Virus record (IMG/VR): IMGVR_UViG_3300036852_000195
Location: 1 to 58,838 of that record
Length of the DNA: 58,838 bases
Direction: 5' to 3' (one strand)
Source of the DNA: a virus
Shown here in pieces: positions 17,030 to 46,580 of this stretch (position 1 is its first letter; the number at the start of each line of letters is the position of its first letter). The position numbers were made by a program, and so were the translations under genes. The notes under the pieces were generated by a model, which did no database searches, was not told the DNA's origin, and saw only the letters and a program-made list of their open reading frames with translations.

Positions 17030-17048
17030 TTCAATAAGGAGCCTGAAA

Positions 17049-21623: not shown

Positions 21624-21864
21624 TACCGCAACCTTTACACCCAGCGCCAGTCCAACGGTCACGCTGACGCCTGCGCCGACTTGGACGGCGTGGTTAATCA
21701 AGATGAACTTTTCAATGACTGAACAAGCCATCTTCAGTCCCAAGAATTCAGTCCAGAATTGTTTCATCAGTTATTTTGACCTGACACTTCAGCCTGGATA
21801 TATTGGCGTTTGGAGACGCGATAACGGTGGGTATATGCAGTGTATGGATTTAATCGGACAATAA
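21385..21864 (+). CDS. Putative lipoprotein with a Thr/Pro/Ser-rich linker
   Basis: Signal peptide with lipobox (RVCIIACAGLLLILMAGC), then a T/P/S-rich stretch. GTG start after aggatgg. Overlaps 21210..21623 out of frame. Confidence 0.5.
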   Translation: MNTRNNTPSFRSSIRVCIIACAGLLLILMAGCVQPILTPTIPPMGETPTLIASSTKASNLTLAPTLTAMSTSTSTLTPTDTATFTPSASPTVTLTPAPTWTAWLIKMNFSMTEQAIFSPKNSVQNCFISYFDLTLQPGYIGVWRRDNGGYMQCMDLIGQ

Positions 21865-24407: not shown

Positions 24408-25019
24408 ATGACCAGTGTATCAGGTATTTATGTTATTCTCCACAAGAAAAGCGGCATGATTTACATCGGTCAAGCGCAGAATATACGCAAGCGCTGGAAA
24501 GATCATCGTGCTGGATTGAATACCAATCACCATCACAATTCGCATCTGCAATCAGCCTGGAATAAATACGGCGCGTCAGCTTTCCAGTTTAAAATACTTG
24601 AACGCTGTTCTGTGGATCGGTTGGATGAACGTGAGCAGCATTATCTAAATATCCACATGCCAAAGAAAACGTGTTATAACGTTTCAACATTGGTTGGCAC
24701 AACACGAGGAATATCTCCTAGCGCTGAAACACGAATGAAATTAAGCGCTGCCAATAAAGCAAGATATACCGATCCAGCCGAACGGTTGAAAACCAGTGAA
24801 CAGCTAAAAGGTCATTATGTTAGTGATGAAACACGAAACAAAATGGCTGTAAGCAAAGCAATGAACTGGCTTTTGATTGATCCTAACGGTACTGAATACA
24901 TTGTTAGTAATTTGCGTCAGTTTTGCCGACAAAACCAGTTGAATGATAGTGCTTTGTCGGCAGTATCTAAGGGTAGATTTAAGCATCACAAGGGCTGGGT
25001 ATGTCGCAAGATCAACTGA
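24408..25019 (+). CDS. GIY-YIG homing endonuclease #1 (between terS and terL)
   Basis: GIYVILHKKSGMIYIGQAQNIRKRWKDHRAGL. NUMOD3-like SAETRMKLSAANK. C-terminal HTH-like NLRQFCRQNQLNDSALSAVSKGRFKHHKGW. Confidence 0.85.
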   Translation: MTSVSGIYVILHKKSGMIYIGQAQNIRKRWKDHRAGLNTNHHHNSHLQSAWNKYGASAFQFKILERCSVDRLDEREQHYLNIHMPKKTCYNVSTLVGTTRGISPSAETRMKLSAANKARYTDPAERLKTSEQLKGHYVSDETRNKMAVSKAMNWLLIDPNGTEYIVSNLRQFCRQNQLNDSALSAVSKGRFKHHKGWVCRKIN

Positions 25020-26503
25020 TGCTTAAATTGCGAAAACTCGCCGCTATGGAAGCGGAGATGAAGCGGCGGGGAATGATGATCCCCAGGCCGGAACCGCCGC
25101 CGCCAACCAGCAAACCGGAACCTGAATTTCCGCCGCCCGTTGAGTGGATCGAGCAAAACTTTTACCTCTACGACACGGGCAATCTGATAACCCTTTACGA
25201 TTGCCAGCGCCGCCCGCTGCAACTGGCGTTAGAGCGCGATGCGGCAGGGTTGTTCAAGTACACCACGATATTATGGTCATGGCCTAAGAAGTCAGCCAAA
25301 TCGAGTGTGATTGCGTCTGTGGCGGACTTCACTGCTGCTAGCCGCAATCGGGCATCGGTCAAGCTGGTGGCGAACGACTTGAAGCAGGCTGATTCCCGCG
25401 TGGGTATGTACCTACGCGAAAGTATCAAGTTGGGACAGAAAGCCGGAAACCGCGATACAGCCATCCGCATGACGCCATCCGGCTATACCACAAAATACCC
25501 CAACGGCTCGATCATTGAATGCGTACCCATTGACCCCAGCGGCGAAGCGGGCGGTAATGACGACATGATCGTCTATAGCGAGCTACACGGCTGGAAAAGC
25601 AAAGCCCATCAGCGCATGTGGACGGAAATGACCCTTTCGCCCAACAAGTTTGGTAACAGTCAAAGATGGGTGGACACTTACGCGGGCTTTGAAGGTGAAT
25701 CGCCCATCCTTGAGCAACTGTACCAAGTAGGCGTGAAGCAGGGGCGGCGCGTCTGGGATGATCTGGAAGTCTACGTAAACGAGCAAGCCCGCATGTTGAC
25801 CGTGTGGGTGACGAAGCCGATGCTGCCCTGGCAGGTGAGCGCTTCTGGTCAGGAATACTACGCTCAGGAAGCAGCACAACTCGCGCCCAACGAATTCGCC
25901 CGCATCCATCTCAATCAGTGGGTGAGCAGCGAAGACGTGTTCATCCCAGCGGAATGGTGGACTGCTTGTAAATCAGAATACGACGATATAAAGCCCGACG
26001 AACCCGCTATCTTATCTTTAGATGCTGGGGTTGCAAGTGACTGCTTTGCTGTTCTGATGGTCACGCGCCGAAATGATAAGGTCCAGGTTCAATACTCTAA
26101 GAAGTGGCAACCTGTTCCTGGTCAGAAACTCGATTTTCAGCCTATCGAAAATGAAATTCGCAGACTGATTAACACCTACAACATAATTGAAATGGCATAT
26201 GATCCATATCAATTAGTCTCAATGGCTGGGCGTCTTCGCGCTGAAGAAGTCATTAACGTGCGTGAATTCAATCAATCTTCCCCGCGCGCAATAGCTGATA
26301 AGCGACTCTATGACATGATTAGAGAAAAGCGTATTCAGCATAAGGGCGATCCTGATTTAACGGCACATATTCTCAATGCGAATCGCAAACCTGAAGACGA
26401 AAACAAACTCAGGTTGATTAAGCGAACGCCAGAGGGGAAAATAGATTTAGCAGTCTGCTTAAGTATGGGGTGTGATCGCAGTTTTGCCTACGCCCTAGAA
26501 TAA
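25001..26503 (+). CDS. terL: Terminase large subunit
   Basis: 500 aa. P-loop-like WPKKSAKSS and Walker B-like DDMIVYSE. C-terminal nuclease-like region (AYDPYQ). Synteny is terS-terL-portal. Confidence 0.85.
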   Translation: MSQDQLMLKLRKLAAMEAEMKRRGMMIPRPEPPPPTSKPEPEFPPPVEWIEQNFYLYDTGNLITLYDCQRRPLQLALERDAAGLFKYTTILWSWPKKSAKSSVIASVADFTAASRNRASVKLVANDLKQADSRVGMYLRESIKLGQKAGNRDTAIRMTPSGYTTKYPNGSIIECVPIDPSGEAGGNDDMIVYSELHGWKSKAHQRMWTEMTLSPNKFGNSQRWVDTYAGFEGESPILEQLYQVGVKQGRRVWDDLEVYVNEQARMLTVWVTKPMLPWQVSASGQEYYAQEAAQLAPNEFARIHLNQWVSSEDVFIPAEWWTACKSEYDDIKPDEPAILSLDAGVASDCFAVLMVTRRNDKVQVQYSKKWQPVPGQKLDFQPIENEIRRLINTYNIIEMAYDPYQLVSMAGRLRAEEVINVREFNQSSPRAIADKRLYDMIREKRIQHKGDPDLTAHILNANRKPEDENKLRLIKRTPEGKIDLAVCLSMGCDRSFAYALE

Positions 26504-26511: not shown

Positions 26512-26582
26512 TGAGGGAATAAAAGGTTCGCCCGCGTGTTATCAGCACCGGGCGAGTGAGTGTCACATTGGAGGTGAACACT

Positions 26583-31693: not shown

Positions 31694-33202
31694 ATGTCCA
31701 ATCTTGTTGAGGACGCCCTGAAAGCCAATGGCGGCGTCATCCCTGGGCAGGGCGTTGCTACCAAGAACGATCCGCCCCTTGCACCCGTCCAGCCCTACTT
31801 GCATGGTCCCAACGGACTATTCAATCGTCGGGATCGCGAAAATCCAGTCTTTAGCGCTATCATGACCCCCATGATGGGCGTAGCTGAGGCGCTGCCCGTG
31901 TTCAACGGCGCGCGCAATCTGGATGGCGCTTTCGGAGGCACAGACGCAGCCTTTGAAAGCCTGCTCACAGGGGTGACAGCGGGCGCGCTGGACTCGTTCG
32001 CCAACCAACCGACGCAGCCCTGCCAGGATGGTCCGGTGGGTGGGTTACTCAAGTTCTGTTCGATGGTGAACACCTACGGCAACTACAAAATGGCTACTCG
32101 CGAAGTGGAAATCACCCGCGCGGGACGCGTGGCCGATATGACCGACGCCTTCAGCGTCCAGGTTGCCAACCAGTTTCCACCTGGATTGTTCGCAACGCCG
32201 AGCGGAACGCCGTCCTTGCAAAATGCCGTCAACAATGAACTCGCCAGCCGTATCTGGGAAATGACCATCGGCTTTCAACGCATGTTCGCGCCGCGCGTGT
32301 TCACGGGTACGCCCGCCAACAACAATGGCACGGCAGAGGATATTGTCGGGCTGAATATTCACATCAACAGCGGCAACAAGCTGGATGCCAAGTCGCAGTC
32401 GATTTGCACTGCCGCCAACAGCGATGTGAAAAACTTCGGCAGCGCAGTCGTTTCCGGCACTGAAACCACATCGAACATTGTTAAGTATATTGAGATGTGC
32501 GATGCCTTTTCGGTGTATCGCGCGCGCCGTCAGGGATTGGGAACACCGGAATACATCATTGCGATGCGTCCCGAACTGTGGTTTGAAATTACCCAGGTTG
32601 TTCCGATTCAGAAGTATCTAAAAGTGATCGCGCAGGTGAACGGCATTACCAATGCCCGTGCCAACATTGACATGGAAACGGTATATGCAGATCGTAATGC
32701 AATGCGTGAAAACCATTTGATCCCGGTCAACGGGCGCATGATCCGCGTGGTGGAAGATGACACGATTGCTGAAACCAACCTGGGCAAGTTCGCAGGTGTT
32801 GACCGCTATTCCAGCACCATCTACGGTATCCCTCTGACCGTGCTGAATGGCTACCCGGTCACATTCTGGGAATACTTCAACCATGCCAATGCGCAGGCGC
32901 AGGCCATTCAGAACGTTGCGGGTCAACTCACCTGGACGACTGACGGCGGCATGTTCCGCTGGTTTGCTGACTTCGCGCGCGGCTGCTTGAAGCTGAATGC
33001 CGTGTTCACTCCGCGCCTACGTATGCGCACCCCGCAAGTGGCGTGGCGGATTGACGCAGTGGCTTACGAACCAATGCAGCACTTCACCTCCTGGGACCCG
33101 AACAGCAGCTACTTTGTCAATGGCGGCGTCACCCAGGGCGAGAATCAGAAATACTACTCGGCTTGGGACCCAACAACGCCTGGTGTTCCTGGCGGCCTGT
33201 AG
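31694..33202 (+). CDS. Major capsid protein
   Basis: 502-aa ORF with a strong RBS (ggaggttaacATG), following the scaffold gene. Call is by synteny. Confidence 0.65.
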   Translation: MSNLVEDALKANGGVIPGQGVATKNDPPLAPVQPYLHGPNGLFNRRDRENPVFSAIMTPMMGVAEALPVFNGARNLDGAFGGTDAAFESLLTGVTAGALDSFANQPTQPCQDGPVGGLLKFCSMVNTYGNYKMATREVEITRAGRVADMTDAFSVQVANQFPPGLFATPSGTPSLQNAVNNELASRIWEMTIGFQRMFAPRVFTGTPANNNGTAEDIVGLNIHINSGNKLDAKSQSICTAANSDVKNFGSAVVSGTETTSNIVKYIEMCDAFSVYRARRQGLGTPEYIIAMRPELWFEITQVVPIQKYLKVIAQVNGITNARANIDMETVYADRNAMRENHLIPVNGRMIRVVEDDTIAETNLGKFAGVDRYSSTIYGIPLTVLNGYPVTFWEYFNHANAQAQAIQNVAGQLTWTTDGGMFRWFADFARGCLKLNAVFTPRLRMRTPQVAWRIDAVAYEPMQHFTSWDPNSSYFVNGGVTQGENQKYYSAWDPTTPGVPGGL

Positions 33203-33209
33203 TCTTTTC

Positions 33210-33218
33210 TGCTATAAT
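33210..33218 (+). promoter_or_regulatory. Extended -10 promoter (TGcTATAAT) plus a 9-bp leader hairpin ending at the start codon
   Basis: TGcTATAAT at 33210-33218. Hairpin GAGCGAACA/TGTTCGCTC at 33220-33254 abuts the ATG at 33255. Confidence 0.5.
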
Positions 33219-33254
33219 TGAGCGAACATCCAACCCTGTGAAAGGTGTTCGCTC

Positions 33255-33509
33255 ATGCCTGTTATCAAATACGAACAGAAGCGCGTTTATAACTTCCCGT
33301 ATGTCGTGGTCATCATTTTCTATCAAAACGGTACAAATGAATACTACGATTTGCCTTTTCCGATGCTGGGATATAAATCTGCGGGTGAAGCTTTTTTTGT
33401 TCAATGGCTTAGATTTCAAAGACGGATGGCTTGTGTTCACAGACGTTCAAAAAACGTTTTACGCAATGCCAATTGCATCTATTTTGAGAATCGAATGCGA
33501 AATCATTGA
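33255..33509 (+). CDS. Hypothetical small protein (accessory insert)
   Basis: 84-aa ORF in a visibly AT-richer stretch, with its own promoter and hairpin. Confidence 0.4.
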   Translation: MPVIKYEQKRVYNFPYVVVIIFYQNGTNEYYDLPFPMLGYKSAGEAFFVQWLRFQRRMACVHRRSKNVLRNANCIYFENRMRNH

Positions 33510-34114
33510 AATGGATTCGCAATAACTGCTATAATGGCTTGAATCCAACCGTATGGGGGGCTGCGCGGACAAATACTCACGCAGCCTCTAGAAAACGCTT
33601 AAATATGCCTTATAGCTCGATTTCCGCCCCTTCCAGAGGATTGTTAACCATTACAGCGCAGCAATTATTCAAGCTGCTGCAACAAGGCGCGATTTTACAA
33701 TCCGTTCACAACCCGTTTGAACAATCATATATTCACGAATTGATTACGCGCATTCCTGATGGACGGGTTTATCAGCGGATTTCTGTTGATCTTATCAACG
33801 AACTGCTCAGTCAGCATAAAATCCGTAGAACTGAATACCGCCCCTGGAATGGTGCGGTAAATTATTTCTACAATCTCATGATCGTGTGTAATGCAGTTGA
33901 ACTGCTGGAACTGATGCAGACCGGGGCAATATTAACCAGTCGTTGGCGCTACGGGAAGCGCATCAATAATTTAAAATTGCCAACGGGTGAAAGTCTGACT
34001 GTTCAATACAGCAATGTTCAATCGCTGCTGAAACATGGTAAGATTTACAGCATTCCGCTATCCGGTGACAATTACGATTATTATCTGGTGAAACCTCCAT
34101 GCCCTACAACTTAA
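33506..34114 (+). CDS. Hypothetical protein with an internal duplication
   Basis: ORF from 33506, or from the ATG at 33605 if the 33527 promoter is used. Two related segments: LFKLLQQGAILQS and LLELMQTGAILTS. Confidence 0.45.
   Translation: MKWIRNNCYNGLNPTVWGAARTNTHAASRKRLNMPYSSISAPSRGLLTITAQQLFKLLQQGAILQSVHNPFEQSYIHELITRIPDGRVYQRISVDLINELLSQHKIRRTEYRPWNGAVNYFYNLMIVCNAVELLELMQTGAILTSRWRYGKRINNLKLPTGESLTVQYSNVQSLLKHGKIYSIPLSGDNYDYYLVKPPCPTT
33527..33535 (+). promoter_or_regulatory. Extended -10 motif (TGcTATAAT) plus leader hairpin. Lies inside the 33506 ORF if that start is real.
   Basis: TGcTATAAT at 33527-33535. Hairpin GGCTGCG/CGCAGCC at 33559-33586. The leader shares atccaacc with the 33210 leader. 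Confidence 0.4.
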
Positions 34115-37100
34115 AGCCAACCTATATCTCCCGCGATGTACCACAGTATTTTGATGATGTGCTTTCCGATAGTTCTTCCTGGCAGGCCGATGTGTATCGG
34201 CTGGCTGCAACACTCGCCCGCGAAAAAGGCATTCAGCGATTGGTGGATATTGGCTGCGGTAGGGGCGAAAAGCTCAAACCGTTGGCTGCTGAATTCAAAA
34301 TTGCAGGAATTGATTACGAAGCAAATATTGATGCTTTCGCGATCAATATCCCTGGTTCGGATCATTATTTCAGCAATCTTGAAACCGCAATTGAACCACC
34401 TGCGCTTTTTAAAGACTCGGTTGTTATTTGCGCTGATGTGATCGAACACTTGATTGATCCGTCAGCCCTGCTGGAAACATTGCGTAACGCTGCGTATACA
34501 GCTAATTATGTTCTCGTTTCCACGCCTGACCGGATGCGTGTTCACAAAAAGGATCACAACGGACCGCCCGTGAACCAATACCACGCCCGCGAATGGACGC
34601 TGGATGAACTCGTTGGCTGGTTCGAGCAAGAAGGTTTGCCCGTCAAATGGGCAGGCTGGACGATCAGCAATGACAACCGCCCTGAGCAGCGCTGGACGAG
34701 TCTGGTTATTTTGTCACAGCATGAAACGATTGACAGTCTTCCAATCACGTTTCAGCCTGCGCCCCAATATCGAAAGGTGTCTAAGAGTAACGGTTCAAAC
34801 CGTTTGAAAGTGTGGATGACGCCCACGCCCAGCGAGGCCGGACGCGATACCACCAATGCGATCCACCAGATCGTCTGTCGACTGGATGGCTTGCTGCCGG
34901 ATTATGACATTGAACTGATTGAGCATCCCGATAACGCTGATTTGCGCGTGGGTCATGCCGGACAGGGGAGCGATGGACCGATTGACGTGGCGCATTATCA
35001 TGGGTTGTACAACACGGCGGGCGGGCATGACGCAGCGCACTTCTTCGCCATCAACTCCCATGTGATCCGCAACCTGCGGGCGGCGAAGATTGTCACCGCG
35101 CCGTCTGAATGGATTGCCGACGTGCTGCGGCGCGATATGCACCTGTCCCCTGATATAGTGGGCTGGGGCGTGGATGTGAACGAGTGGGCGCCCGTTACCG
35201 ATCCAGGGTTATACGTGCTGTGGAACAAGGCGCGCACCGACGCGGTGAGCGATCCAACGCCAATGCTGCAACTGGCGGCGATGGCTCCCCAAGTGCCGTT
35301 CCTGACCACGTTTGGAGAGGGCAGGCAGAACGTTAAGACCATCGGCAGACAACCGTATGAGGTCATGAAAGATTATGTACGTAATGCCTCCGTCTATCTG
35401 GCAACGGTTACGGAAACTTTTGGGATCGCGACGGTTGAAGCGATGGCGTCCGGCGTCCCCGTCCTCGGCTTTAGGCACGGGAATACTGCTCACTTGGTTG
35501 AGCACGGAGTCACGGGATTCCTGGCAGAGCCGGGAGACATTGAAGGACTCTACGAAGGGCTGAAATATTGCCTCAAGTATCGGGATCGTCTGGGCGCGAA
35601 TGCGCGCGAGGCCGCTAAATTCTATACCTGGGATCGGGTGGCGCAGTCGATGGCAGCGATCTATCGGCGGGCGCTGGAACCGCACCAGGGCGTGAAAGTC
35701 AGTGTGATTATCCCCTGCCACAACTATGCGGAATATGTTCAACAAGCAATTATCAGCGTCCAGGAACAGCAAACAACTTTCGATTATGAAATTATCGTTG
35801 TGCTAGATCGTTGCACAGATACAAGTTATCAAGCGGCAATGATTTCTCATATGGCGAACACCAATCAACACTGTAATTCTTTCAGTATAAAAGTCGATAA
35901 CGGTAGTTTATCTGCAACCCGCAACGATGGCATCAAGGCGGCAACAGGCGAGTATATTGTCTGTCTGGATGCCGATGATCGCCTGGGTTCAGCCTTATTT
36001 TTGCAAACTCTGAGCGATGCCCTGGATCGTGACCGCACGTTGGGCATCGCTTTTACATCGATTCGGTTCATGAACGCAGCCGGGGAATTAGGCCATTTGT
36101 CCACATGGCCGAAGGGGTTTGACTTTGAAGCCCAGGCCGCGCGGCGCAATCAAATCCCGTCCTGTTGCATGTTCCGCAAGGAAGCCTGGGCGCGCGCGGG
36201 TGGGTTTCGCCCCTGGTTCAAATACGCCGAAGATGCTGAATTTTGGACAACCGTTCTGGGCATCGGTTATGGAGCAAAACATGTGGTTGAGGATGGTTGG
36301 TTCCAGTATCGGCTGCACAGCAAATCCGCTTCGCAGGTTCACCGCACGGGCGAAGTGAAAGAACCCGACTGGACAGAATTTCACCCCTGGACGAAAGACG
36401 GTCAGCGCCCCTTTGCAGCAGGTGGCAAACCGCCGCTGGGTTCGTGGCCTGTTCGGTTTTATCTGAACCCTGAAATCAGCGTGATTATCCCAGTGGGGGA
36501 AGGTCACGAGGAATTGGTTAAAGACGCGCTGCATAGCGTGGAAGGCCAGACGTTCCGCATGTGGGAATGTATCGTAGTCAACGATACCATCACAAAACTC
36601 GATTTAAGCGGGTTTCCCTGGGCAAAGGTGGTTAATCAACTAGCAGGTGAGGGCGCAGGCGCAGCGCGCAACCTGGGCGCAAAATCAGCCAATTCTCCAT
36701 TCCTGGTGTTTCTGGACGCCGACGATATTTTGAAACCCACGTTTTTAGAGCGAACGCTGGAAACTTACAAGCATCACGGACGCTATGCTTATACCGACTG
36801 GATGACCGATGATCGGCGCGGCAAGGTGGAAGTACATCCGACGCCGGAATACGGGCGCGAATCGCTCTGGGATCATCCATCACTGCATCCGGTGACGGCA
36901 CTCATTCCCCGCTATTGGTTCAATGCTGTGGGCGGGTTTGATGAAAGCCTGACCGCTTTTGAAGACGTTGATCTGTACATGAAATTTTTCGCGCACGGTT
37001 TCTGTGGGAAGCGTGTTCCCGAACCGCTGTTGGTATATAATTTGGACACGGGCAAGCGGCGAAAAGCAGGCGAAAAGACCAAGAAACAATTCCTAGCGCT

Positions 37101-37668
37101 GCTCAAAACCCGTTACAGTGATTTTATGGAGGGCAAAAAGATGTGTGATTGTGTTGATCCGCCAAAGGGCAAGCAGCCCGCGCCGCCATCGCCGGATAAC
37201 GCGGAAGAATATCGCGCTGCATACGGCGAAATGATCCTGGTGCAATACACGTTTCAGTATGCGGGCGACTCCGCCGTGACGCTGCTCGGTCCCGGCACGA
37301 AGGCCAACTATGGCGCGCGGGCAAAGAACGACGTGTTTTACGTCTGGGAAGCTGACCTGATAGCGGGCGGCGATATGTTCACCCGTGTTGAACATTACGA
37401 TGTGCAGCCGCAGCCAACGATTGTTCCGCCTGCGCCCGAACCTTTAATTGCTTCAACAATGCAATATCAGCCAGCGAGAGAAGTTGAATTGAAAGGTTTT
37501 GCGGGCGAAGAAGAAATCGTTTATGACCAAAGCGGGAAAATCCCTCTCGCAATGTTCAAAAACGATACAATTGAAGGCAAACTTGCAGAACAAAAAGCGT
37601 TGCCCAAGAAAACAACCCCGCCGCGCGGCGCACGTAAAACGAAAGCGACACGGCGCAAAACATCATGA
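34099..37668 (+). CDS. Multidomain methyltransferase-GT1(GT4-like)-GT2-GT2 glycosylation enzyme
   Basis: SAM motif I: LVDIGCGRGEKL. GT1: ETFGIATVEAMASGVPVLGF...GVTGFL. GT2 twice: VSVIIPCHNYAEYVQQAI...CLDADD and ISVIIPVGEGHEELVKDAL...FLDADD. Basic C-terminal tail. Confidence 0.85.
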   Translation: MPYNLKPTYISRDVPQYFDDVLSDSSSWQADVYRLAATLAREKGIQRLVDIGCGRGEKLKPLAAEFKIAGIDYEANIDAFAINIPGSDHYFSNLETAIEPPALFKDSVVICADVIEHLIDPSALLETLRNAAYTANYVLVSTPDRMRVHKKDHNGPPVNQYHAREWTLDELVGWFEQEGLPVKWAGWTISNDNRPEQRWTSLVILSQHETIDSLPITFQPAPQYRKVSKSNGSNRLKVWMTPTPSEAGRDTTNAIHQIVCRLDGLLPDYDIELIEHPDNADLRVGHAGQGSDGPIDVAHYHGLYNTAGGHDAAHFFAINSHVIRNLRAAKIVTAPSEWIADVLRRDMHLSPDIVGWGVDVNEWAPVTDPGLYVLWNKARTDAVSDPTPMLQLAAMAPQVPFLTTFGEGRQNVKTIGRQPYEVMKDYVRNASVYLATVTETFGIATVEAMASGVPVLGFRHGNTAHLVEHGVTGFLAEPGDIEGLYEGLKYCLKYRDRLGANAREAAKFYTWDRVAQSMAAIYRRALEPHQGVKVSVIIPCHNYAEYVQQAIISVQEQQTTFDYEIIVVLDRCTDTSYQAAMISHMANTNQHCNSFSIKVDNGSLSATRNDGIKAATGEYIVCLDADDRLGSALFLQTLSDALDRDRTLGIAFTSIRFMNAAGELGHLSTWPKGFDFEAQAARRNQIPSCCMFRKEAWARAGGFRPWFKYAEDAEFWTTVLGIGYGAKHVVEDGWFQYRLHSKSASQVHRTGEVKEPDWTEFHPWTKDGQRPFAAGGKPPLGSWPVRFYLNPEISVIIPVGEGHEELVKDALHSVEGQTFRMWECIVVNDTITKLDLSGFPWAKVVNQLAGEGAGAARNLGAKSANSPFLVFLDADDILKPTFLERTLETYKHHGRYAYTDWMTDDRRGKVEVHPTPEYGRESLWDHPSLHPVTALIPRYWFNAVGGFDESLTAFEDVDLYMKFFAHGFCGKRVPEPLLVYNLDTGKRRKAGEKTKKQFLALLKTRYSDFMEGKKMCDCVDPPKGKQPAPPSPDNAEEYRAAYGEMILVQYTFQYAGDSAVTLLGPGTKANYGARAKNDVFYVWEADLIAGGDMFTRVEHYDVQPQPTIVPPAPEPLIASTMQYQPAREVELKGFAGEEEIVYDQSGKIPLAMFKNDTIEGKLAEQKALPKKTTPPRGARKTKATRRKTS

Positions 37669-38009
37669 CAGACCGCGAATTGCTTGAGCAGCTATTCAAT
37701 TTCCTGGTCAATCGCAACTTTGTGCAGGGCGAAGAAGCCGTTGTCAGGGACATGGTAAAGCGGTATAAGCAACCGCCGCTCACCATGTATCATCTGGTGT
37801 GTATGCAGATGACGATGGAAGATTACCGCAAGCTGGAAAAGCTGCTTGAACAAATACTGGCGCGGTTCGATCCGAACGTGATTGCCGTTGAGGAAATTGC
37901 GAATATTGACGCATTAAAACCGGGCAATCTTGTTAGATCAGCAGACGGCAAACGTCTTTATGAAGTTAATGCCCTGCCTGTTGAGGAAACCGTTCATGAC
38001 GCTGTTTGA
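37665..38009 (+). CDS. Hypothetical protein
   Basis: 114-aa ORF with ATGA coupling to the glycosyltransferase gene. Confidence 0.5.
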   Translation: MTDRELLEQLFNFLVNRNFVQGEEAVVRDMVKRYKQPPLTMYHLVCMQMTMEDYRKLEKLLEQILARFDPNVIAVEEIANIDALKPGNLVRSADGKRLYEVNALPVEETVHDAV

Positions 38010-38411: not shown

Positions 38412-39092
38412 ATGTCTATCAGTATACCAAAAACCTCCGGTATCTACAAAATCACCTGCACGGCAAATGGGTTGATTTATGTGGGTTCTGCCAAAAGTTT
38501 ATTCCATCGCTGGAATAAGCATCGTAGTGAACTGCGAAACAATAAACACTTCAATCCGCGTCTACAAAATGCTTACAATAAATATGGCGAAGATGCTTTC
38601 ACGTTTGAAGTTCTTGAACTGGTGATGCCCTGGTCGAGAATTGATCGTGAAAATCATTGGTTGAAACAACTTGAACCCTACAAACGAGAAATTGGTTTCA
38701 ATGTTGGGATGGCAGCAGATAATGGTATGACGGGGCGAAAACACACACTTGAGACGCGGGTTAAGCAGGGCGCTAAAGCAAAAGGACGACAGCATTCATC
38801 TGAAAGCCGCAAACTGATGAGTGCGCAGCGTAAAGGTTTGAAAAAGTCCCCGGAACACAAGAACAAAATCAGTGTAACGCACATGGGGATGAAACAGTCT
38901 CCTGAAATTTTAGCGAAAATCGCGGATACGTTGTCAAAAAACTACATTGTGATTGATCCAGATGGCAATGAAATCGCTGTCCGCAATCTGAATCAGTTTT
39001 GTAAAGACAATGGTCTAAGTCAATGCCATATGTCGGAAGTAGCAAATGGGAAAGCCCGCCATCACAAAGGATGGAGGTGCAGTAAGGAGTAA
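38412..39092 (+). CDS. GIY-YIG homing endonuclease #3
   Basis: GIYKITCTANGLIYVGSAKSLFHRWNKHRSEL. NUMOD3-like repeats. C-terminal NLNQFCKDNGLSQCHMSEVANGKARHHKGW, closest to #1. Confidence 0.85.
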   Translation: MSISIPKTSGIYKITCTANGLIYVGSAKSLFHRWNKHRSELRNNKHFNPRLQNAYNKYGEDAFTFEVLELVMPWSRIDRENHWLKQLEPYKREIGFNVGMAADNGMTGRKHTLETRVKQGAKAKGRQHSSESRKLMSAQRKGLKKSPEHKNKISVTHMGMKQSPEILAKIADTLSKNYIVIDPDGNEIAVRNLNQFCKDNGLSQCHMSEVANGKARHHKGWRCSKE

Positions 39093-39097
39093 TCAAT

Positions 39098-40321
39098 TTG
39101 GCTCGTGCAAGCACCGTCACTGGACTTCCAATCGACACCTGGGGGGCGATATTAGGTTTCTCGCCCTGGGAACTAAATAACTGTAAATTTCCTTTAGCTA
39201 AATCCGCCCAATGTAGTGACGTAACATATCAATTTCCCTGGCAACACGATCATCTCTCAAGAGAGGAGATCGCGGAGGCTATTGCGAATGCGGAGAAAAT
39301 GTTAGCCGATGAGCTACTCTACTGGTTATTTCCCAAGTATTTTGTGGGCGAAGTACAGCAATATACCCGTCCGCATCAGCGTGAATTGTTCGGCTTTGCA
39401 GGTGATCCGCGCGGCAATTGGAAAACGGTTCAACTGAACTGGAAGAAAATTGTCAGCGGCGGCGCATTCAACCGCACGGTGATTGGCACAATCCTTGCAG
39501 CCGCTATAACATTCCTGGATGAAGACGGCGACGGCATTTTTGAAACCTTTCAAGCAACGATCACCGACGCGGTGATTGGCAACATAACTCATCCCTATGA
39601 ACTGGTGCTGTATTTCCCCGCACAATTCCGGCACGGCGAGGACATTGGGGAAACCTGGCGCGTCCGCCCGATCACGGTTTCGATCAGCGGCAATACAGCC
39701 ACTTTTCGCGGGCATCGCACCTTACTCGTCAACCCGCAAAAGGAATTCGGCGTGTCGGCGTCCCCGTTCGATCCAGCGCTGGCTGCGACCTATGTGGATG
39801 AATTGGAATGCGCGCGCATTTTCACTGATGATACGGCGACTGCTGCGCTGCCCTATCAAGGTGTGGCGGAGTGGAAAACCATCCCCGGCTGTACGACAGA
39901 TTGTACCTTTGAGGTTGCGCCGCTGTGCCTGGGCGAACACAATAACGATCAGGGTAGGGTATTCGCTTCATTCGGTTCACCGTCCACTTGGCCTTGCTGC
40001 TTTGATCGGGAGCCGGATCGGGTCAATGTCAATTACGTGGCTGGCCTGCCGCTGGTGGATGGTGAAATCCAGGACGAATGGGCGCGCGTAATTACCTATT
40101 TGTCAGTATCGCTGCTGGCGAACGAGAAATGCGGTTGTGACCGCAGCAATCGCATTCTGGACAAATGGCGCAAGCCCATTTTGCGCTTTGAAGACAATAA
40201 CGACGCGGGCGCGCAGGCGTTCGCTTTCAATAAAACGCCGTTGCCGATGACAACGGGCGGGCAATATGCCTGGCAACGCGTAAAGCGCAATCGTGACTTG
40301 GAGGTCGTATCAATATCATGA
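39098..40321 (+). CDS. Hypothetical virion structural protein (head-tail joining region)
   Basis: 407-aa ORF with a TTG start 7 nt after AAGGAG. Located between the capsid and tail genes. Confidence 0.5.
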   Translation: MARASTVTGLPIDTWGAILGFSPWELNNCKFPLAKSAQCSDVTYQFPWQHDHLSREEIAEAIANAEKMLADELLYWLFPKYFVGEVQQYTRPHQRELFGFAGDPRGNWKTVQLNWKKIVSGGAFNRTVIGTILAAAITFLDEDGDGIFETFQATITDAVIGNITHPYELVLYFPAQFRHGEDIGETWRVRPITVSISGNTATFRGHRTLLVNPQKEFGVSASPFDPALAATYVDELECARIFTDDTATAALPYQGVAEWKTIPGCTTDCTFEVAPLCLGEHNNDQGRVFASFGSPSTWPCCFDREPDRVNVNYVAGLPLVDGEIQDEWARVITYLSVSLLANEKCGCDRSNRILDKWRKPILRFEDNNDAGAQAFAFNKTPLPMTTGGQYAWQRVKRNRDLEVVSIS

Positions 40322-40602: not shown

Positions 40603-40949
40603 CAGAGAAAAAATCAAAACAGGGCTTGGTGCGATCATCGCAACCCTACAACCGAGAAACTTACGAAGACGGCTCTGGAATACCCAGAGTCGTTTTAGTA
40701 CCCGCAGGCGAAACCGATCTGAAACGAGGCATTCCGCTTTCGTTCGATCTGTCTCCACTGTTCGGGCATATGCCAGCCGATTTCCAGCGCGAATTCTATG
40801 CAGCGCTACATGCGCAAGGCTTGGTTGAGCCTGCGGATTATTTCAAATCAGGCGCAGCCGAACGGTATCAAGCAGCGCTGCGCACTGTATTGAAGCACGA
40901 TTTCTTAAACATTCAAACATTGGCAAAAGAGGAGCTAAATCATGCCTGA
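40599..40949 (+). CDS. Hypothetical head-tail connector-region protein
   Basis: 116-aa ORF with ATGA coupling. Confidence 0.45.
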   Translation: MTEKKSKQGLVRSSQPYNRETYEDGSGIPRVVLVPAGETDLKRGIPLSFDLSPLFGHMPADFQREFYAALHAQGLVEPADYFKSGAAERYQAALRTVLKHDFLNIQTLAKEELNHA

Positions 40950-42432
40950 AGATGTGAATCTGTTAAAGAGCGGACAATCCCGAATTTTTGTACAGCCGGA
41001 CGGTTCCAGTCCGGTCAATCCCTATTCGTATGTCGGTTGTCTGTCGCTGGGTGGCCTTCAGGAGGATTTAGGCACGGGTGAACCGATCTATTGCCCTTCC
41101 TCGGAAGTGGCCGGGGTGTTCGACATTGTAGACACCACGTCGCCGCCGCCCGCGCTGCCGACAACGGACTTCACCCAGCACGCCAATCGCCAGTTGCAGG
41201 ATTTCTGGTGGGATTTGCGCCGCCGTAAGTGTGAATTTAACGCTAAGATCAAAAATTCAAACTGCGCACGCCCTGATGATCCAGACGATTTTGAGTCGAT
41301 GATTATCCTGCGCCGCAATAAGATGACTGCTTTCAATACGGGCGCATTCAATGCCCTGGATGCAGACGCGGTTGTTGACCTGACGGGAACGCTGCAATCG
41401 CTGGGTTTTGATCGCTTTTTGCCGATGACCTTTGGCGAAGTGGCGGAAAACTCCGCCTTCTCAGAAGCGCTGGACGGCATTTATGCCGATAAAATCCAGT
41501 GTGGGAACTGCGGCGCACAATCCGATGGTTGCCAGAAATCTTACGTGCTGGCGAAGACTGAAACCGCGTCCCCGGCATCACCCGCGTCCATCATCTACAC
41601 AGCGGACAATTGGGGCACATCCGGCCACGATTTCATCACCACGCTGGGCATCCAAACCGCCAACAAACTGGCGCAAGTTGGACAGCGCATTGTGGTGATT
41701 TCGGAAACCGATGAAGCCCATCATTACAAACTGCAATCGTCCATCGACAATGGCACGGTGGGCGGCTGGACGCGCGTAGCGACGGGATACGTGGCAACCA
41801 AAGGTCCGCAGGCCATTTGGAGCAAATCGCCCAGCGAAACTTATGTTGCAGCGGAAGGCGGATATGTCTATTTCATGGCAAATCCAGCCGCAGCCGTAAC
41901 CGTGCTGACCGATGGCAGCGTGACCACGCAAAACCTGAACGACATTCGCGGCAAAGGCCGAACGATTGTCGCGGTGGGTGCGTCCAACGCTGTGATTGTG
42001 TCCTACAACGGCGGGTCAACTTGGTCACTGGTGACGGGTCCCGCAGTCGGTATCGTCTTGAACACGGTTGAGGTCATTAATGACTCGATCTGGTTCATCG
42101 GCGCGGCCAACGGCACAAGCTATTACACCATCAACAAGGGCGTGACCTGGGTTGCCAATTCGCCCGATGCGCTGATTACGTCAGTGACCAAAATCCGCTT
42201 TGTGGACGAGATTGTGGGTTACATGACCGCCACTCTGAGCGGTTCGGTGCGCATCTATCGCACGGCGGATAATGGCTACTCCTGGCATTACGACGGCTCG
42301 TATGTGGGTGGCGTTCCCGCTGCTCTAGCTTATGATTTCGTCACACCTTGCCCCGGCAATTACAACATTGCGCTGGCGGGCGGATTGGCGGCGACTGGCA
42401 CAGACGGTGTTTTGGCGCTGGGCGTTGGTTAA
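40942..42432 (+). CDS. Putative major tail (tube) protein with a C-terminal BNR/Asp-box beta-propeller-like domain
   Basis: Position just upstream of the chaperone pair and tape measure. Asp-box-like motifs: TADNWGTS, SYNGGSTWS, TINKGVTWV, TADNGYSWH. Confidence 0.5.
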   Translation: MPEDVNLLKSGQSRIFVQPDGSSPVNPYSYVGCLSLGGLQEDLGTGEPIYCPSSEVAGVFDIVDTTSPPPALPTTDFTQHANRQLQDFWWDLRRRKCEFNAKIKNSNCARPDDPDDFESMIILRRNKMTAFNTGAFNALDADAVVDLTGTLQSLGFDRFLPMTFGEVAENSAFSEALDGIYADKIQCGNCGAQSDGCQKSYVLAKTETASPASPASIIYTADNWGTSGHDFITTLGIQTANKLAQVGQRIVVISETDEAHHYKLQSSIDNGTVGGWTRVATGYVATKGPQAIWSKSPSETYVAAEGGYVYFMANPAAAVTVLTDGSVTTQNLNDIRGKGRTIVAVGASNAVIVSYNGGSTWSLVTGPAVGIVLNTVEVINDSIWFIGAANGTSYYTINKGVTWVANSPDALITSVTKIRFVDEIVGYMTATLSGSVRIYRTADNGYSWHYDGSYVGGVPAALAYDFVTPCPGNYNIALAGGLAATGTDGVLALGVG

Positions 42433-43318: not shown

Positions 43319-46300
43319 ATGACTCCACTTCCCAAAATAGGGCTTCAAGCTGTGCTGGAAGGAATGCCAGGGTTTACCAAAGCCCTGGATACCGTCAATA
43401 AAGGCGCAGATGAATCCACTAAGAAAATGAAAGAAGCAGCCAAAGCCGCTGATCCGTTCTCCTCCGGTTTGAACAAACTTGGGCTTTCGCTTGATTCAGT
43501 CAAAGACAAAATTGCCAAATTTACCGGACTCAACCGGGAAGCAATTGACGGCATTTTTGAATTGACGCAATCCTTTGGTCCGATGGCGGTTGCCATAGGC
43601 GCATCGGTGATTGCCGTTGCAGCACTGGCAGTCGGCTTTGTGAAGCTGGGCGAACGCGGCGCAGCCCTGGTTCCGCTGGCGCAGTCATTTGATAATCTTA
43701 CGGCGTCAGTCGGCATTTCCAGTCAAGCGCTGCTGGTCGATCTGCGTAAAGCCGCCAACGGCACGGTCAGCGATTTTGATCTGATTAAACGTGCTAACCT
43801 TGCACTGGTCGGAACGTCAGGCGAATTCGGCAAGGCGTTTGGTGAAAAACTGCCTGCGGTTTTGCGTTCCGCCCGCGCTGCTGCCAAAGCAACCGGACAG
43901 GATGTGGATTTTCTGTTTCAATCGCTGGTATCTGGTATCAAACGCGCCTCTCCCCGATTGATTGACAACACAGGTATTGTGCTGAAGTTGAGCGCTGCTA
44001 ATGAGGCGCTGGCGAAGTCACTGCATAAATCGGTTGAACAATTGACCGATGAGGAAAAGCAGATTGCCGTTCTAAACGCCACAGTGGACGCGGGCGATGA
44101 TCTGATTCAGAGTTTGGGCAATGCAGCCGAATCAAATGCTGAAAAATTGGCACGTTCGCAGGCAACCATCACCAACATTTTTGATACCTTAGCCGTCGCT
44201 GTCCAGCCCGCCTTCGCAACCGTGCTGGATATTGTCAATCGTGTGCTGGGCGCATTTCAGCAGTTAGCAGTCGGCATTGCTCCAATCTTGAGTTCGATTG
44301 CGTCCATCATCACTGACATTCTGGGCGGTGCGATCAACGCAATTCTGGATATTATCTCGCCTATTGCAAGCGCGTTGGCGAGTTTCCTTCCCTACATTTC
44401 GATTTTGTTCCAGGGCATCGCTAATGTGGTGCACGGTGCGGTGACTTTTATCGGGAATATCATCAAAGGCGTGGTGACGTTCATTCAGGACGTAGCCAAA
44501 AACCTGTTTGGGCTGGATATTTCCAACCTGGGCAAGAGTTTGTTTGAAGGCGCTGCGGCGGCATTCGGTTCGTTCGCCAATGGTATTCTGAGCGTAGCCA
44601 ATCAATTGATTTTCCCGGCTGTAATTGGTATTGCTAAATTTATAGCCGATTTCCTGATTGGGTTTTCTCCGCCGAAAATGGGTCCGCTGTCGATGATCGA
44701 CAAGGGCGGCGAGAACCTCATGAAAGCGTGGCTGGACGGGATCGCGGGCGTGAGTCTTGATCCGGTTGAGCAGGTTGCAGCCGAAGTGAGCGCGATGCTG
44801 GGCGATATTGGCAAAGCAACTGCGCCCCAGGTGGACGCACGCCTCAAGCAGCTTGACCAAGCCCTACTACCATTCCAGAACCGTCTGGATATTGTCAAAT
44901 CGCAGTTTGACGCGATTGCAGCACCCGCGCAGGCCGCGCTGGATGCGATTGATCGTCAAATGTTGGCCGCACAAGAAGCTTTGCAGAACGGCGATGTGAA
45001 TGCCGCCAACACCATCCGTAAACTGGACGCGGCGCGTGAAGCGATCCAGGGGCAGTTGGATGCGCAGCAAGCCGTAGTCGATCAGCAGCAAATCCAGCTT
45101 GGTTTGGCAACCGCCGCACAGTCTCAAGAACGCGCATTACTCAATATCCGCAAGGCGCAGTTGGCCGCAACTCAAAAGGTCGGCGCAGCAGTGGCTAAAG
45201 CGGGCGGCGTGGCTAAAGACCCCAAAGCAGCGGGCGGCGCTGCGCCGAACCCGATGGAAACAGGCGGCGCGGCGGGCGGTTTTGTTCCTCCCGGTGAGTC
45301 GGTGCTGGATTTGATCGGCGGTCAATCGGCGGTTAATGATGCGATTGCGGGCATTCAGGATGCTTTTGCAGGCCAGATTGACACCAGCCAGCTTGATCTG
45401 TTCGGCCAGAATTCGGGCGCGCTGCAAGAGCAGTTTGACCGGATTGGCAGTGTGGATTTGGGCGCAAAACTGAGCGACAAGTTCAAGGGTTTGACCGATC
45501 TGTTCAATCCTGAAGTGGAAGGCAGTCCGGCCAACTCCATCAAGACATTTGTTTCCACGTTGACAGCGGGCGCAGACACCCCTGGTTCTATCGCCAGCTT
45601 TTTTAGCAATGTCGGTCCTAACGTTCAGGCCGCAACCGCTGGCCTGGGCGATGCGATCAGCGCCCAATTTGATCCCAACGTTGACGGAACGCCCGCCAAT
45701 GTAATCGTCAATGCAGTAAAAACATTGACAGGCGATGAGGCGACTGCTGACTCGCTGGCTTCATTCTTTGCACAACTACCGCAGAATGTCAGCACTGCTG
45801 CCGGTGGTTTGTTTGACATGCTGCAAACCAACGTGTTCAAACCTGTGACCGATTTTCTGACGGGTACAGGTCCCGGCACATTGTCGGGCGTGATTGATGG
45901 CGTGGTAGCGTTCTTTACTGAACTGCCGACGCGCGTAGCAGTTGCCCTGGCTGGAATGGGTGCGGCAATCTATGGCGCGCTGGTCGTCCCCGTGATTTCA
46001 ACGGTCAACAGTCTGATCGGCGCAGTCGAAGGCGCGATCCGCACGTTTGTACAGGGCATTGCAACCTTTATTCAGGGTATTGCGGACGGCATTGACAGCG
46101 TTGGTCTGGGGATTGATACCGCAGGTATTCACAATATCGCCAATGATCTGAACGCCAAAGCAGCGGGTATCGCGCTGGGCAGAATCCCGGTGACGATCCC
46201 CGATTTCGCAGCCGCTATCCCAACCGCCGCAACGGGCGGGTTGTTCGGTCCCGGCGCGATCAACGTTGGCGAACATGGTCCCGAACGCATCTTCGCAGCC

Positions 46301-46501
46301 GACAAGATTGGAATTCTCCCGGCTGAACTGACAAAAGCACTGGAAGGGTTGGGTAGTATTTTAGCCCAGCCTGCGCCGATGATGGTTCCTGGCGGCGATA
46401 CCTATAACAATTCCAGTTCAAGTTCGTTTACTTTCAACGGAGTCAAGAGCGACCAAGACGCCAGGAGAAGATACAATGCGCTTCGTGCTGGAATGAGATA
46501 A
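43319..46501 (+). CDS. Tape measure protein
   Basis: 1060 aa, Ala/Gly/Gln-rich and alpha-helical, with a central hydrophobic block (ILSSIASIITDILGGAINAILDIISPIASALASFLPYISILFQGIANVV). Canonical position. Confidence 0.85.
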   Translation: MTPLPKIGLQAVLEGMPGFTKALDTVNKGADESTKKMKEAAKAADPFSSGLNKLGLSLDSVKDKIAKFTGLNREAIDGIFELTQSFGPMAVAIGASVIAVAALAVGFVKLGERGAALVPLAQSFDNLTASVGISSQALLVDLRKAANGTVSDFDLIKRANLALVGTSGEFGKAFGEKLPAVLRSARAAAKATGQDVDFLFQSLVSGIKRASPRLIDNTGIVLKLSAANEALAKSLHKSVEQLTDEEKQIAVLNATVDAGDDLIQSLGNAAESNAEKLARSQATITNIFDTLAVAVQPAFATVLDIVNRVLGAFQQLAVGIAPILSSIASIITDILGGAINAILDIISPIASALASFLPYISILFQGIANVVHGAVTFIGNIIKGVVTFIQDVAKNLFGLDISNLGKSLFEGAAAAFGSFANGILSVANQLIFPAVIGIAKFIADFLIGFSPPKMGPLSMIDKGGENLMKAWLDGIAGVSLDPVEQVAAEVSAMLGDIGKATAPQVDARLKQLDQALLPFQNRLDIVKSQFDAIAAPAQAALDAIDRQMLAAQEALQNGDVNAANTIRKLDAAREAIQGQLDAQQAVVDQQQIQLGLATAAQSQERALLNIRKAQLAATQKVGAAVAKAGGVAKDPKAAGGAAPNPMETGGAAGGFVPPGESVLDLIGGQSAVNDAIAGIQDAFAGQIDTSQLDLFGQNSGALQEQFDRIGSVDLGAKLSDKFKGLTDLFNPEVEGSPANSIKTFVSTLTAGADTPGSIASFFSNVGPNVQAATAGLGDAISAQFDPNVDGTPANVIVNAVKTLTGDEATADSLASFFAQLPQNVSTAAGGLFDMLQTNVFKPVTDFLTGTGPGTLSGVIDGVVAFFTELPTRVAVALAGMGAAIYGALVVPVISTVNSLIGAVEGAIRTFVQGIATFIQGIADGIDSVGLGIDTAGIHNIANDLNAKAAGIALGRIPVTIPDFAAAIPTAATGGLFGPGAINVGEHGPERIFAADKIGILPAELTKALEGLGSILAQPAPMMVPGGDTYNNSSSSSFTFNGVKSDQDARRRYNALRAGMR

Positions 46502-46514: not shown

Positions 46515-46580
46515 ACTCTAAACAAAGTGCCGTTCGCGGTGTGCAACCACCCAACGGCTGTATGCAGAGGGATTGCACAC

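Follow-up and report, generated by a model that had tools for sequence, protein, structure and literature searches.

Actinobacteriophages are the tailed phages in which enzymatic glycosylation of the particle has been demonstrated to date; in them, it changes recognition by the immune system. Here, we describe a gene of an uncultivated phage (IMG/VR record IMGVR_UViG_3300036852_000195, positions 1 to 58,838, the whole stretch being referred to as "the window") that encodes, in a single polypeptide of 1189 amino acids (aa), a class-I S-adenosylmethionine (SAM) methyltransferase (MT), three glycosyltransferase (GT) domains and a C-terminal module. We refer to this polypeptide as "the fusion" and, as we discuss below, it is probably, if not securely, a soluble, late-expressed and self-contained cytoplasmic machine that would build an O-methylated glycan directly on the proteins of the virion.

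In Cluster O mycobacteriophages, an O-methyltransferase gene is followed by three GT genes, and the enzymes are reported to modify the capsid and the tail tube (PMC11600133); a further report places the glycans at the C-termini of the capsid and tail-tube subunits (PMC12619734, citing Freeman 2023). In phage Corndog, the products gp35-38, i.e. MT-GT-GT-GT, are encoded by four separate genes beside the gene of the major head protein; an earlier note on the DNA analysed here had drawn a likeness to virion glycosylation in actinobacteriophages, and this adjacency bears it out. The chlorovirus PBCV-1 encodes A064R, an experimentally validated GT-GT-MT protein of 638 aa that completes, within the cytoplasm, the glycan of the capsid, its MT domain methylating the terminal sugar, and that is described as "one of the few [enzymes] that has three transferase domains" (PMC9614988); the chlorovirus protein A111/114R (860 aa) has three GT domains (PMC9614988). 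WsaE, from the S-layer glycan system of Geobacillus stearothermophilus, is a soluble protein with an N-terminal O-methyltransferase and two rhamnosyltransferase domains: it builds repeating units on a lipid-linked chain, a 2-O-methyl cap ends the growth of the chain, and export by Wzm/Wzt and transfer by an oligosaccharyltransferase lead to an end product that is a glycoprotein (PMC2943079).

The fusion gene and its catalytic domains

The fusion gene and the parts of its product are located in the window as follows:

34099..37668, + strand: fusion of methyltransferase, GT-B, GT2, GT2 and C-terminal module, ATG start, 1189 aa
34189..34638, + strand: class-I SAM methyltransferase domain, residues 31-180, Pfam Methyltransf_23
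34804..35688, + strand: GT4-like GT-B domain, residues ~236-530, EX7E motif E439...E447
35698..36339, + strand: first GT2 (GT-A) domain, "GT2a", residues 534-747, DxDD motif D624/D626/D627
36475..37098, + strand: second GT2 (GT-A) domain, "GT2b", residues 793-1000, DxDD motif D873/D875/D876
37066..37152, + strand: helical linker ending in an invariant CxC pair (C1016, C1018)
37198..37398, + strand: small conserved alpha/beta domain, residues ~1034-1100
37399..37665, + strand: Pro-rich linker and variable tail with a Lys/Arg (K/R)-rich end, PPRGARKTKATRRKTS

The open reading frame (ORF) is open for 1189 codons and an independent public gene call has returned the identical protein, so that the single ORF described in the earlier note is seen by both routes. 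The motifs LVDIGCGRGEKL, ETFGIATVEAMASGVPVLGF, KVSVIIP...CLDADD and EISVIIP...FLDADD and the tail PPRGARKTKATRRKTS have all been located in the fusion, and the four catalytic domains that had been assigned, together with their approximate boundaries, are supported by Pfam: Methyltransf_23 matches residues 31-180 (E 2.8e-12, 47.1 bits vs a cut-off of 27), Glycos_transf_1, the C-terminal half of the GT-B fold, matches residues 409-504 (E 3.4e-17, 63 bits vs a cut-off of 26.4), Glycos_transf_2 (E 1.8e-36, 126 bits) matches two stretches, residues 535-690 and about 794-888, and Glyco_tranf_2_2 matches residues 794-888 of GT2b (E 8.5e-19, 68.5 bits). Over the N-terminal half of this fold the match is weak, to Glyco_transf_4 at residues 284-360 (18.2 bits, under the cut-off of 28.5); PF13439 is present on many homologues of the fusion in precomputed annotations.

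Residues E439, D624/D626/D627 and D873/D875/D876 are invariant, and E447 is at least 90% conserved, among 34 homologues with identities down to 32%. The MT motifs D[IL]GCG (the glycine-rich SAM-binding motif I), GxDY (with the acidic residue after strand 2), CADVIEH, STPDR and HxREW are intact in 10/10 aligned MT-bearing homologues. Degenerate DxD or SAM motifs, against which the earlier note had cautioned, are found in neither the 34-sequence nor the 10-sequence alignment; these alignments show four intact transferase domains under purifying selection. The nearest relatives of the MT domain are the MT domains of large MT+GT proteins, some with TPR (P0108-P0111), and its substrate is presumably a sugar hydroxyl, as expected of an O-methyltransferase. 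Among solved structures, the tandem GT2 pair is closest to the K4 chondroitin polymerase (K4CP) of E. coli (2z86/2z87; profile E 1.5e-50, single-sequence E 1.6e-13), to which the two domains align in a colinear manner: GT2a to residues 94-202 of the K4CP chain (A1) and GT2b to residues 429-555 (A2). PDB profile matches also include GalT1 5hea (E 1e-27), GmaR (E 8e-10), Gtf1 4pqg and SunS 7msp, at the level of the generic domain.

The C-terminal module

After GT2b, the fusion continues with a helix, the CxC pair, a linker, the alpha/beta domain, a "TVxPPxP" linker and the variable tail. This module comprises ~190 residues, and Pfam has no match over residues ~1005-1189. The alpha/beta domain is predicted with a predicted local distance difference test score (pLDDT) of 86-96; Foldseek has returned no significant fold relative (best E 0.2 in the PDB and 0.4 in BFVD), and 24 sequence matches have been found among 1.84 billion representatives, mostly from its own family or from fragments of it. 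The domain is specific to this fusion family. The tail that follows it is K/R-rich in the window, HhH (PF14520) or SAP/Rho-N-like (PF02037) in some relatives, and absent from many others (P0056-P0082). The earlier description of this part as a ~180-aa region of unknown function with a Lys/Arg tail is right about the tail; the region itself is more than an uncharacterised stretch, being a defined module with a CxC pair, an orphan domain, a linker and swappable tails.

Distribution of the fusion family

The GT-B/GT2/GT2 architecture is found in 107 protein clusters of a large protein database, 38 of which have the N-terminal MT domain (1148-1223 aa), the other 69 (856-1051 aa) beginning at ~residue 230 of the window protein. 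IMG/VR contains 348 loci that encode relatives of the fusion, on contigs of about 45-90 kb. The core, i.e. GT-B, GT2, GT2 and the C-terminal module, is the hallmark of a large, deep clade of uncultivated phages, with the N-terminal MT domain as a subclade-specific addition to it. The fusion, which the earlier note had called unusual, is no isolated oddity: its core is conserved throughout the clade and anchors a hypervariable island of sugar-chemistry genes, which we describe in the next section.

When one genome for each of 185,579 species of bacteria and archaea was scanned by sequence pattern, the matches retained covered one or two domains only and no full-length fusion was encountered; likewise, nothing comparable has been found among the cultured phages, where single GT domains are matched. 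A description of the clade or of the fusion has not been found in the literature that we have searched, which is no proof that none exists; the "glycosylated capsid" named in two papers is that of archaeal viruses with no relation to this clade.

The earlier note had asked whether the domains occur as separate genes in related phages. Fusion of the three GT domains is all but universal, and the MTs are usually separate genes of the cassette that belong to other families. The exceptions among the GTs are two loci, L006 (169-5588) and L007 (10001-14331), where the gene is split at residues 533/534, exactly at the boundary of GT-B and GT2a, which confirms this boundary; the halves, an MT-GT-B protein of 542-557 aa and a GT2-GT2-C-terminal-module protein of 652-653 aa, persist there as separate genes, parted by 0.7-1.8 kb of small ORFs that have no Pfam match. 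This insert may be mobile or intron-like in nature; its ORFs, being without Pfam match, give no sign of a homing-endonuclease origin. Among the loci, the MT domain of the window occurs in the fused form only, and a derivation of it from the standalone MTs of the cassettes has been rejected (BLASTP against the MT of L001: E 0.002 over 35 residues).

Genomic position and the sugar cassette

The window is the complete genome (~58.7 kb) of the phage, circularly assembled, as judged from a 127-bp terminal direct repeat at 1-127 and 58712-58838. It is present in the environmental samples SRR11829679 and SRR11829739. The genes that define the surroundings of the fusion gene are the following:

25001..26503: TerL, Pfam match
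31694..33202, + strand: major capsid protein, HK97 fold, 502 aa, from an AlphaFold model and Foldseek
33255..33509, + strand: 84-aa ORF at the variable cassette position, no family match
33605..34114, + strand: 169-aa ORF at the variable cassette position, no Pfam match
37665..38009, + strand: 114-aa ORF, its ATG overlapping the fusion stop codon (ATGA), no predicted transmembrane (TM) segment
37996..38325, + strand: DUF1360 small membrane protein (Pfam), 109 aa, 2-3 predicted TM segments
38412..39092, + strand: GIY-YIG homing-endonuclease gene, PHROG 314, E 5e-33, in agreement with the public call
39098..40321, + strand: 407-aa head-module protein, downstream boundary of the island, 64/67 loci
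40942..42432, + strand: 496-aa protein, putative major tail protein by position, 59/67 loci
43319..46501: tape measure, PHROG match

The positions of TerL and of the tape measure gene place the fusion gene within the morphogenesis block. For the comparison of this block across the clade, we have used 79 non-redundant loci, each fetched through its own fusion homologue with flanks of +/-10 kb; upstream counts refer to the 72 loci with enough flank and downstream counts to 67.

The gene order of the clade is: 488-aa gene, capsid, variable cassette, fusion, (DUF1360), 407-aa gene, (small gene), 496-aa BNR protein, chaperones and tape measure. A capsid homologue lies 5' of the fusion in 61/72 loci, while the 407-aa gene and the BNR protein gene lie 3' of it in 64/67 and 59/67 loci, respectively. 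The genes share a strand and leave little space between them, the next gene being at most 10 nt from the fusion in 40/67 loci, and in three minimal loci (L010, L011 and L015) capsid, fusion and 407-aa gene follow each other with nothing intervening.

The identity of the capsid protein, which the earlier note had assigned to 31694..33202, has been confirmed by structure prediction, which was needed because the sequence searches were empty: the sequence has no match in Pfam, PHROGs, the PDB (sequence and profile) or the cultured phages. The AlphaFold model, built with 41 homologues (pLDDT 74, predicted template-modelling score 0.72), has the HK97 fold, with 278 Foldseek matches in the PDB at E<=1e-3, headed by the capsids of the phages Bas63, PhiTE, Sf14 and SPO1 and by encapsulins. 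The C-terminal ~25 residues are predicted to be disordered and end in ...YYSAWDPTTPGVPGGL, the tail of the window protein being DPTTPGVPGGL; in close relatives, a WS[PT][ST][TS]P motif recurs in the tail, e.g. WSPSTPV and WSTTTPVYP. The gene immediately 5' of the capsid gene (30186-31652) has homologues of 351 to 1398 aa, which suggests a scaffold-, protease- or MuF-like product with swappable extra domains.

Between the capsid gene and the fusion gene, the loci of the clade have a cassette of 0-11 genes, the content of which has been established by protein clustering and by Pfam scans of the cluster representatives. Methyltransf_24 is the commonest cassette gene (35 copies in 26 loci); further members are GT2 enzymes of small size (24 loci), aminotransferases of the DegT/DnrJ/EryC1 type (21 loci) and epimerases/dehydratases of nucleoside diphosphate sugars (12 + 10 loci); GT10-like proteins, GNAT acetyltransferases, GHMP kinase, Glyco_trans_1_2 and standalone Methyltransf_23/11 also occur, and an N6/N4 DNA methylase is present in 8 loci. 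Directly 3' of the capsid gene, 27 loci (e.g. L014:8504-9220, L012:5751-6464 and L028:5901-6608) encode a ~240-aa protein without Pfam match, whose pattern, TSDKY...LEDYWL...MDLT.DR, resembles a DxD-type nucleotide-sugar transferase; it may represent an unrecognised GT family and is a candidate for the initiating enzyme. Judged by its families, the cassette is a toolkit for making and tailoring nucleotide sugars, almost entirely given to sugar chemistry. It varies even among close relatives: the window has the 84-aa and the 169-aa ORFs at this position, while L004, whose fusion is 69% identical, has a different, 228-aa gene. The fusion gene does not, then, lie right after the capsid gene, as had been stated, since these two small ORFs (33255..33509 and 33605..34114) intervene; the end of the second overlaps the start of the fusion gene by 16 nt, and its homologue is found in L007 only.

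On the 3' side, the ATGA overlap between the fusion gene and the 114-aa ORF is real, as the earlier note had it, and homologues of this ORF are limited to L004 and L006, the closest relatives. The downstream membrane protein has also been upheld: its Pfam match to DUF1360 is marginal (E 2.8e-4, 21.2 bits vs a cut-off of 21), while more than 40 homologues occur at the same position in relatives, and BLAST detects one directly 3' of the fusion in 36/67 loci, often with overlapping stop and start codons. In the window, the start of this gene is most likely the ATG at 37996 and not at 37930.

Two observations concern expression in the interval between the capsid gene and the fusion gene. A promoter-like site is found at:

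33506..33535, + strand: TTGAAA-18 nt-TGcTATAAT (extended -10), 11/12 consensus positions plus TG

This site lies upstream of the 169-aa ORF and the fusion gene, and a second TGCTATAAT occurs at 33210; since promoter-like sites are no commoner in the region than expected by chance, we regard it as a lead only. A hairpin with a 9-bp stem, GAGCGAACA...TGTTCGCTC, directly follows the capsid stop codon and reaches into the next start codon (33203-33260); together with the two TGCTATAAT extended -10 boxes, it could set the expression levels between the capsid gene and the genes downstream. The repeated CTGCTATAAT...CCAACC has been discarded as a phage promoter family, having one match at that spacing against a chance expectation of 0.1.

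Proposed function and alternative explanations

Virion glycosylation, which the earlier note had put forward, has been kept as the best explanation of the fusion on the basis of its position in the head operon, the adjoining sugar cassette and the conserved catalytic residues. The glycan would be built in several steps. The GT4-like GT-B domain, or an accessory GT from the cassette, would place the first sugar on a Ser or Thr residue of a virion protein, the most plausible candidate acceptor being the disordered, Ser/Thr-Pro-containing C-terminal tail of the capsid protein. The two GT2 domains would then extend the chain, possibly as an alternating repeat, a role suggested by their colinearity with the domains of the bifunctional K4CP, and the N-terminal MT domain would O-methylate the non-reducing sugar, capping or terminating the chain as in WsaE and A064R. 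The enzymes of the cassette (aminotransferases, dehydratases/epimerases, GNATs, MTs and GTs) would diversify the glycan among related phages, while the orphan C-terminal domain and the tail would position the enzyme on its target. What the phage would gain is a particle shielded by a variable glycan.

Several points weigh against this proposal. The function is read from context throughout, and both the initiating GT and the acceptor are candidates; the Ser/Thr-Pro tail of the capsid protein is short and is clear in the close subclade only. The fusion has no homology to the only phage glycosylation system that has been characterised experimentally, and K4CP makes the chain of a capsular polysaccharide (a glycosaminoglycan) and not a protein-linked glycan. 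The DUF1360 membrane partner is conserved and often translationally coupled, while a cytoplasmic model needs no such partner, and the K/R-rich, HhH and SAP-like tails are of nucleic-acid-binding types, which the model leaves unexplained.

A further reading, unlikely but worth setting out, is that the GT-B/GT2/GT2 core is a processive polymerase: it would produce a long capsid polysaccharide, a "capsule" or glycocalyx, across a widespread uncultivated lineage, methyl-capped in the MT subclade and with its chemistry rewired by the cassette, like an O-antigen locus in a head operon; the orphan domain and the DNA-binding tails would limit glycosylation to DNA-associated (packaging or filled) heads, and the DUF1360 protein would tether the assembly site.

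It is distinctly improbable that the glycan is destined for the surface of the infected cell, where the fusion, tethered by the DUF1360 protein, would polymerise it on a lipid-linked or cell-wall acceptor and thereby mask receptors, block superinfection or stop progeny from sticking to debris, in the manner of seroconversion or of the chlorovirus hyaluronan coat. K4CP, the best solved relative and colinear over both GT2 domains, would suit such a role, and MT+GT+GT enzymes like WsaE act on lipid-linked chains that a methyl cap terminates (PMC2943079); the large MT+GT+TPR proteins that are nearest to the MT domain, and the conservation of a small membrane partner, point in the same direction. 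The genes for initiation, export and ligation that would complete the pathway are, however, missing: no recurring phosphoglycosyl transferase, flippase, ABC transporter, polymerase/ligase or oligosaccharyltransferase has been found in the complete genome and the cassettes of the 79 loci, and polytopic proteins are nearly absent from these cassettes (at least 4 predicted TM segments in 3/377 proteins), so that no flippase, ABC transporter or ligase would accompany the enzymes. The "GtrB-like O-antigen conversion" labels on PHROG matches are confined to the generic GT2 core (residues 533-630), and the gene is situated within the head operon and not at a moron or attachment-site position; moreover, no integrase or sign of lysogeny has been found, nor any prophage copy in the pattern-based scan of the genomes of the 185,579 species. 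Even the membrane partner may be read otherwise: in Gordonia phage Sixama, a weak DUF1360-like relative (E 3e-3) is encoded amid head genes without a GT in its vicinity, so that the membrane protein may have its place in the assembly of the head and not in glycan export.

That the GTs add a methylated oligosaccharide to a modified base of the phage DNA, as a protection against restriction, with the K/R, HhH and SAP tails binding DNA, is very improbable. The variable tails are indeed classic nucleic-acid-binding modules and a DNA methylase occurs in the cassettes of 8 loci, and phage GTs that place mono- and oligosaccharides on DNA are described in two reports (PMC13326640; 10.1101/2023.12.21.572611). 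According to the first, the sugars are attached to a base hydroxyl that comes from a thymidylate-synthase homologue or, by a second route, from a TET-type dioxygenase together with a cytosine C5-methyltransferase (PMC13326640); no thymidylate-synthase homologue, TET or C5-methyltransferase has been found among the ORFs of at least 160 aa outside the structural block of the complete genome, which also has no match to a phage DNA polymerase. Furthermore, the gene lies among head genes at every locus and not in a nucleotide-metabolism module, and many members of the family (P0056-P0082) are tail-less.

Finally, a target outside the virion, i.e. host proteins or the lipoprotein encoded at 21385..21864 that the earlier note had considered, is hardly credible, for although a lipobox (LMAGC) and a ~60-aa Thr/Ser/Pro-rich linker make the latter the most Ser/Thr/Pro-rich stretch of the genome, it is exported, so that a signal-less cytoplasmic enzyme would need to act before export, it is encoded about 12 kb from the fusion in the early/middle region with no link between the two genes, and it has a homologue in 0/79 loci, whose +/-10 kb flanks would not reach a gene ~12 kb upstream.

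If virion glycosylation is indeed the function of the fusion, the strategy would be much more widespread than the actinobacteriophages suggest, and a large environmental clade without a cultured member would apparently have evolved it on its own, with enzymes unrelated to theirs. The combination of a conserved tri-glycosyltransferase with a hypervariable cassette resembles a surface-antigen locus under diversifying selection, and such a locus points to strong selective pressures on the exterior of the phage particle in nature. The fusion could also serve as a compact glyco-engineering tool for capsids or other proteins, with the orphan C-terminal domain and the DUF1360 partner as new parts.

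Additional features of the genome

The genes that follow the DUF1360 gene are, in order, the 407-aa gene, two small genes, the gene of the 496-aa protein, two chaperone-sized genes and the tape measure gene. The GIY-YIG gene at 38412..39092 is a mobile insertion ahead of the 407-aa gene and lies outside the system. The 407-aa protein itself has no match in Pfam, PHROGs, the PDB (sequence and profile) or the cultured phages; 2/31 of its homologues match PHROG 442, "head-tail adaptor" (best E 1.5e-4), and it is possibly such an adaptor. The placement of the fusion in the head-morphogenesis block is sound, while the "head-tail joining" label given to the genes downstream depends on these two homologues and is weak. 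The designation of 40942..42432 as the tail tube is founded on position; what has been found is that the C-terminal ~300 residues of the 496-aa protein form a BNR/Asp-box beta-propeller, with PDB profile matches to Ycf48-like proteins (E 1.6e-16), xyloglucanases and sialidases, and that the protein has no match among cultured phages. Should it prove to be the major tail protein, a propeller of a carbohydrate-active type would be exposed on the tail.

Nine homing-endonuclease genes (4 GIY-YIG, 3 HNH_3, 1 HNH and 1 LAGLIDADG) are found in the genome:

715-1296, - strand: homing endonuclease
4907-5389, - strand: homing endonuclease
19316-20077: homing endonuclease
23086-23730: homing endonuclease
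24408-25019: homing endonuclease
26556-27182: homing endonuclease
38412-39092: homing endonuclease (the GIY-YIG gene listed above)
46527-47252: homing endonuclease
51475-52251, - strand: homing endonuclease

Two of them flank the large terminase gene and others are located between conserved structural genes. TerL itself has only distant relatives among the cultured phages (24-28% identity). Family scans of the ORFs of the complete genome have detected neither an integrase nor a DNA polymerase, and the sole tRNA is a tRNA-Phe (8108-8180, minus strand). Close to each other in the early region, at 15572-16429 and 16998-17828, lie the genes of a PAPS-reductase/PP-loop protein and of a DUF5131 protein (E 3e-53). 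Superinfection exclusion, or some other role at the envelope, is a candidate function of the predicted lipoprotein at 21385-21864, and the style of its linker may hint at the envelope type of the host. For the host itself, the protein cluster P0027 gives Anaerolineae as a lead. Phage_cement_2 (Pfam, E 8.4e-5) has matched 1 of 47 ORFs of the genome that were scanned as a pool; if the match holds, a decoration protein would be another candidate glycan acceptor.

Comparison with known systems

With respect to seroconversion systems of the gtrABC type, none of their features, i.e. a GtrA-type flippase, a polytopic GtrC-type transferase, an integrase or prophage copies, has been found. GalT1, GmaR, SunS and Gtf1 add sugars one by one directly onto protein in the cytoplasm; like the fusion, Gtf1/GalT1 (serine-rich-repeat adhesin), GmaR (Listeria flagellin) and SunS (sublancin) are soluble GT4-like or GT2 enzymes, but they are separate proteins with dedicated acceptor-binding partners. 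K4CP and heparosan synthase (8vh7) share with the fusion the tandem GT-A domains with a DxD motif in each; the identity to K4CP is low, and K4CP, which elongates a capsular polysaccharide, has no GT-B domain, MT domain or C-terminal module.

WsaE, compared here by its description, is like the fusion a single chain in which GT domains come after an N-terminal MT, and the fusion has an additional GT-B domain and the C-terminal module; a pathway of the WsaE type, with a lipid carrier, an ABC transporter and an oligosaccharyltransferase, has not been found in the genome or in the cassettes. A064R and A111/114R, also compared by description, are virus-encoded, soluble, multidomain transferases that build the glycan of a major capsid protein. 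A064R differs in that it comes from a eukaryotic giant virus, with N-linked glycans, and is not encoded in a head-gene operon; its MT domain is C-terminal, and it has three domains and different GT families, whereas the fusion has an N-terminal MT and four domains.

The arrangement in Corndog is similar: an MT followed by three GTs, in the same order, in a virion structural operon next to the capsid gene; in addition, the family of the Corndog MT (TylF/Methyltransf_24) is the commonest gene family in the cassettes of this clade. The two systems differ in that the four genes of Corndog are small (194-289 aa) and precede the capsid gene, while here a single polypeptide of 1189 aa is encoded downstream of it, and the families are different as well: a weak GT2-like, a GT25 and an unassigned GT in Corndog, a GT4-like and two GT2 domains with a fused Methyltransf_23 in the fusion. 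No homology of gp35-38 to the fusion has been detected by BLASTP (all E > 0.02), and the Corndog region that we have examined has nothing that corresponds to the orphan C-terminal module, to the DUF1360 partner or to the large nucleotide-sugar cassette.

By its architecture and context, the fusion would group functionally with the virion glycosylation systems of phages and chloroviruses, without being an orthologue of the Corndog enzymes. It differs from the known systems in its four fused transferases, its orphan C-terminal module, its DUF1360 partner and its hypervariable nucleotide-sugar island; as one polypeptide with four predicted transferase activities, it exceeds even the three-domain viral enzymes that are called rare in the literature.

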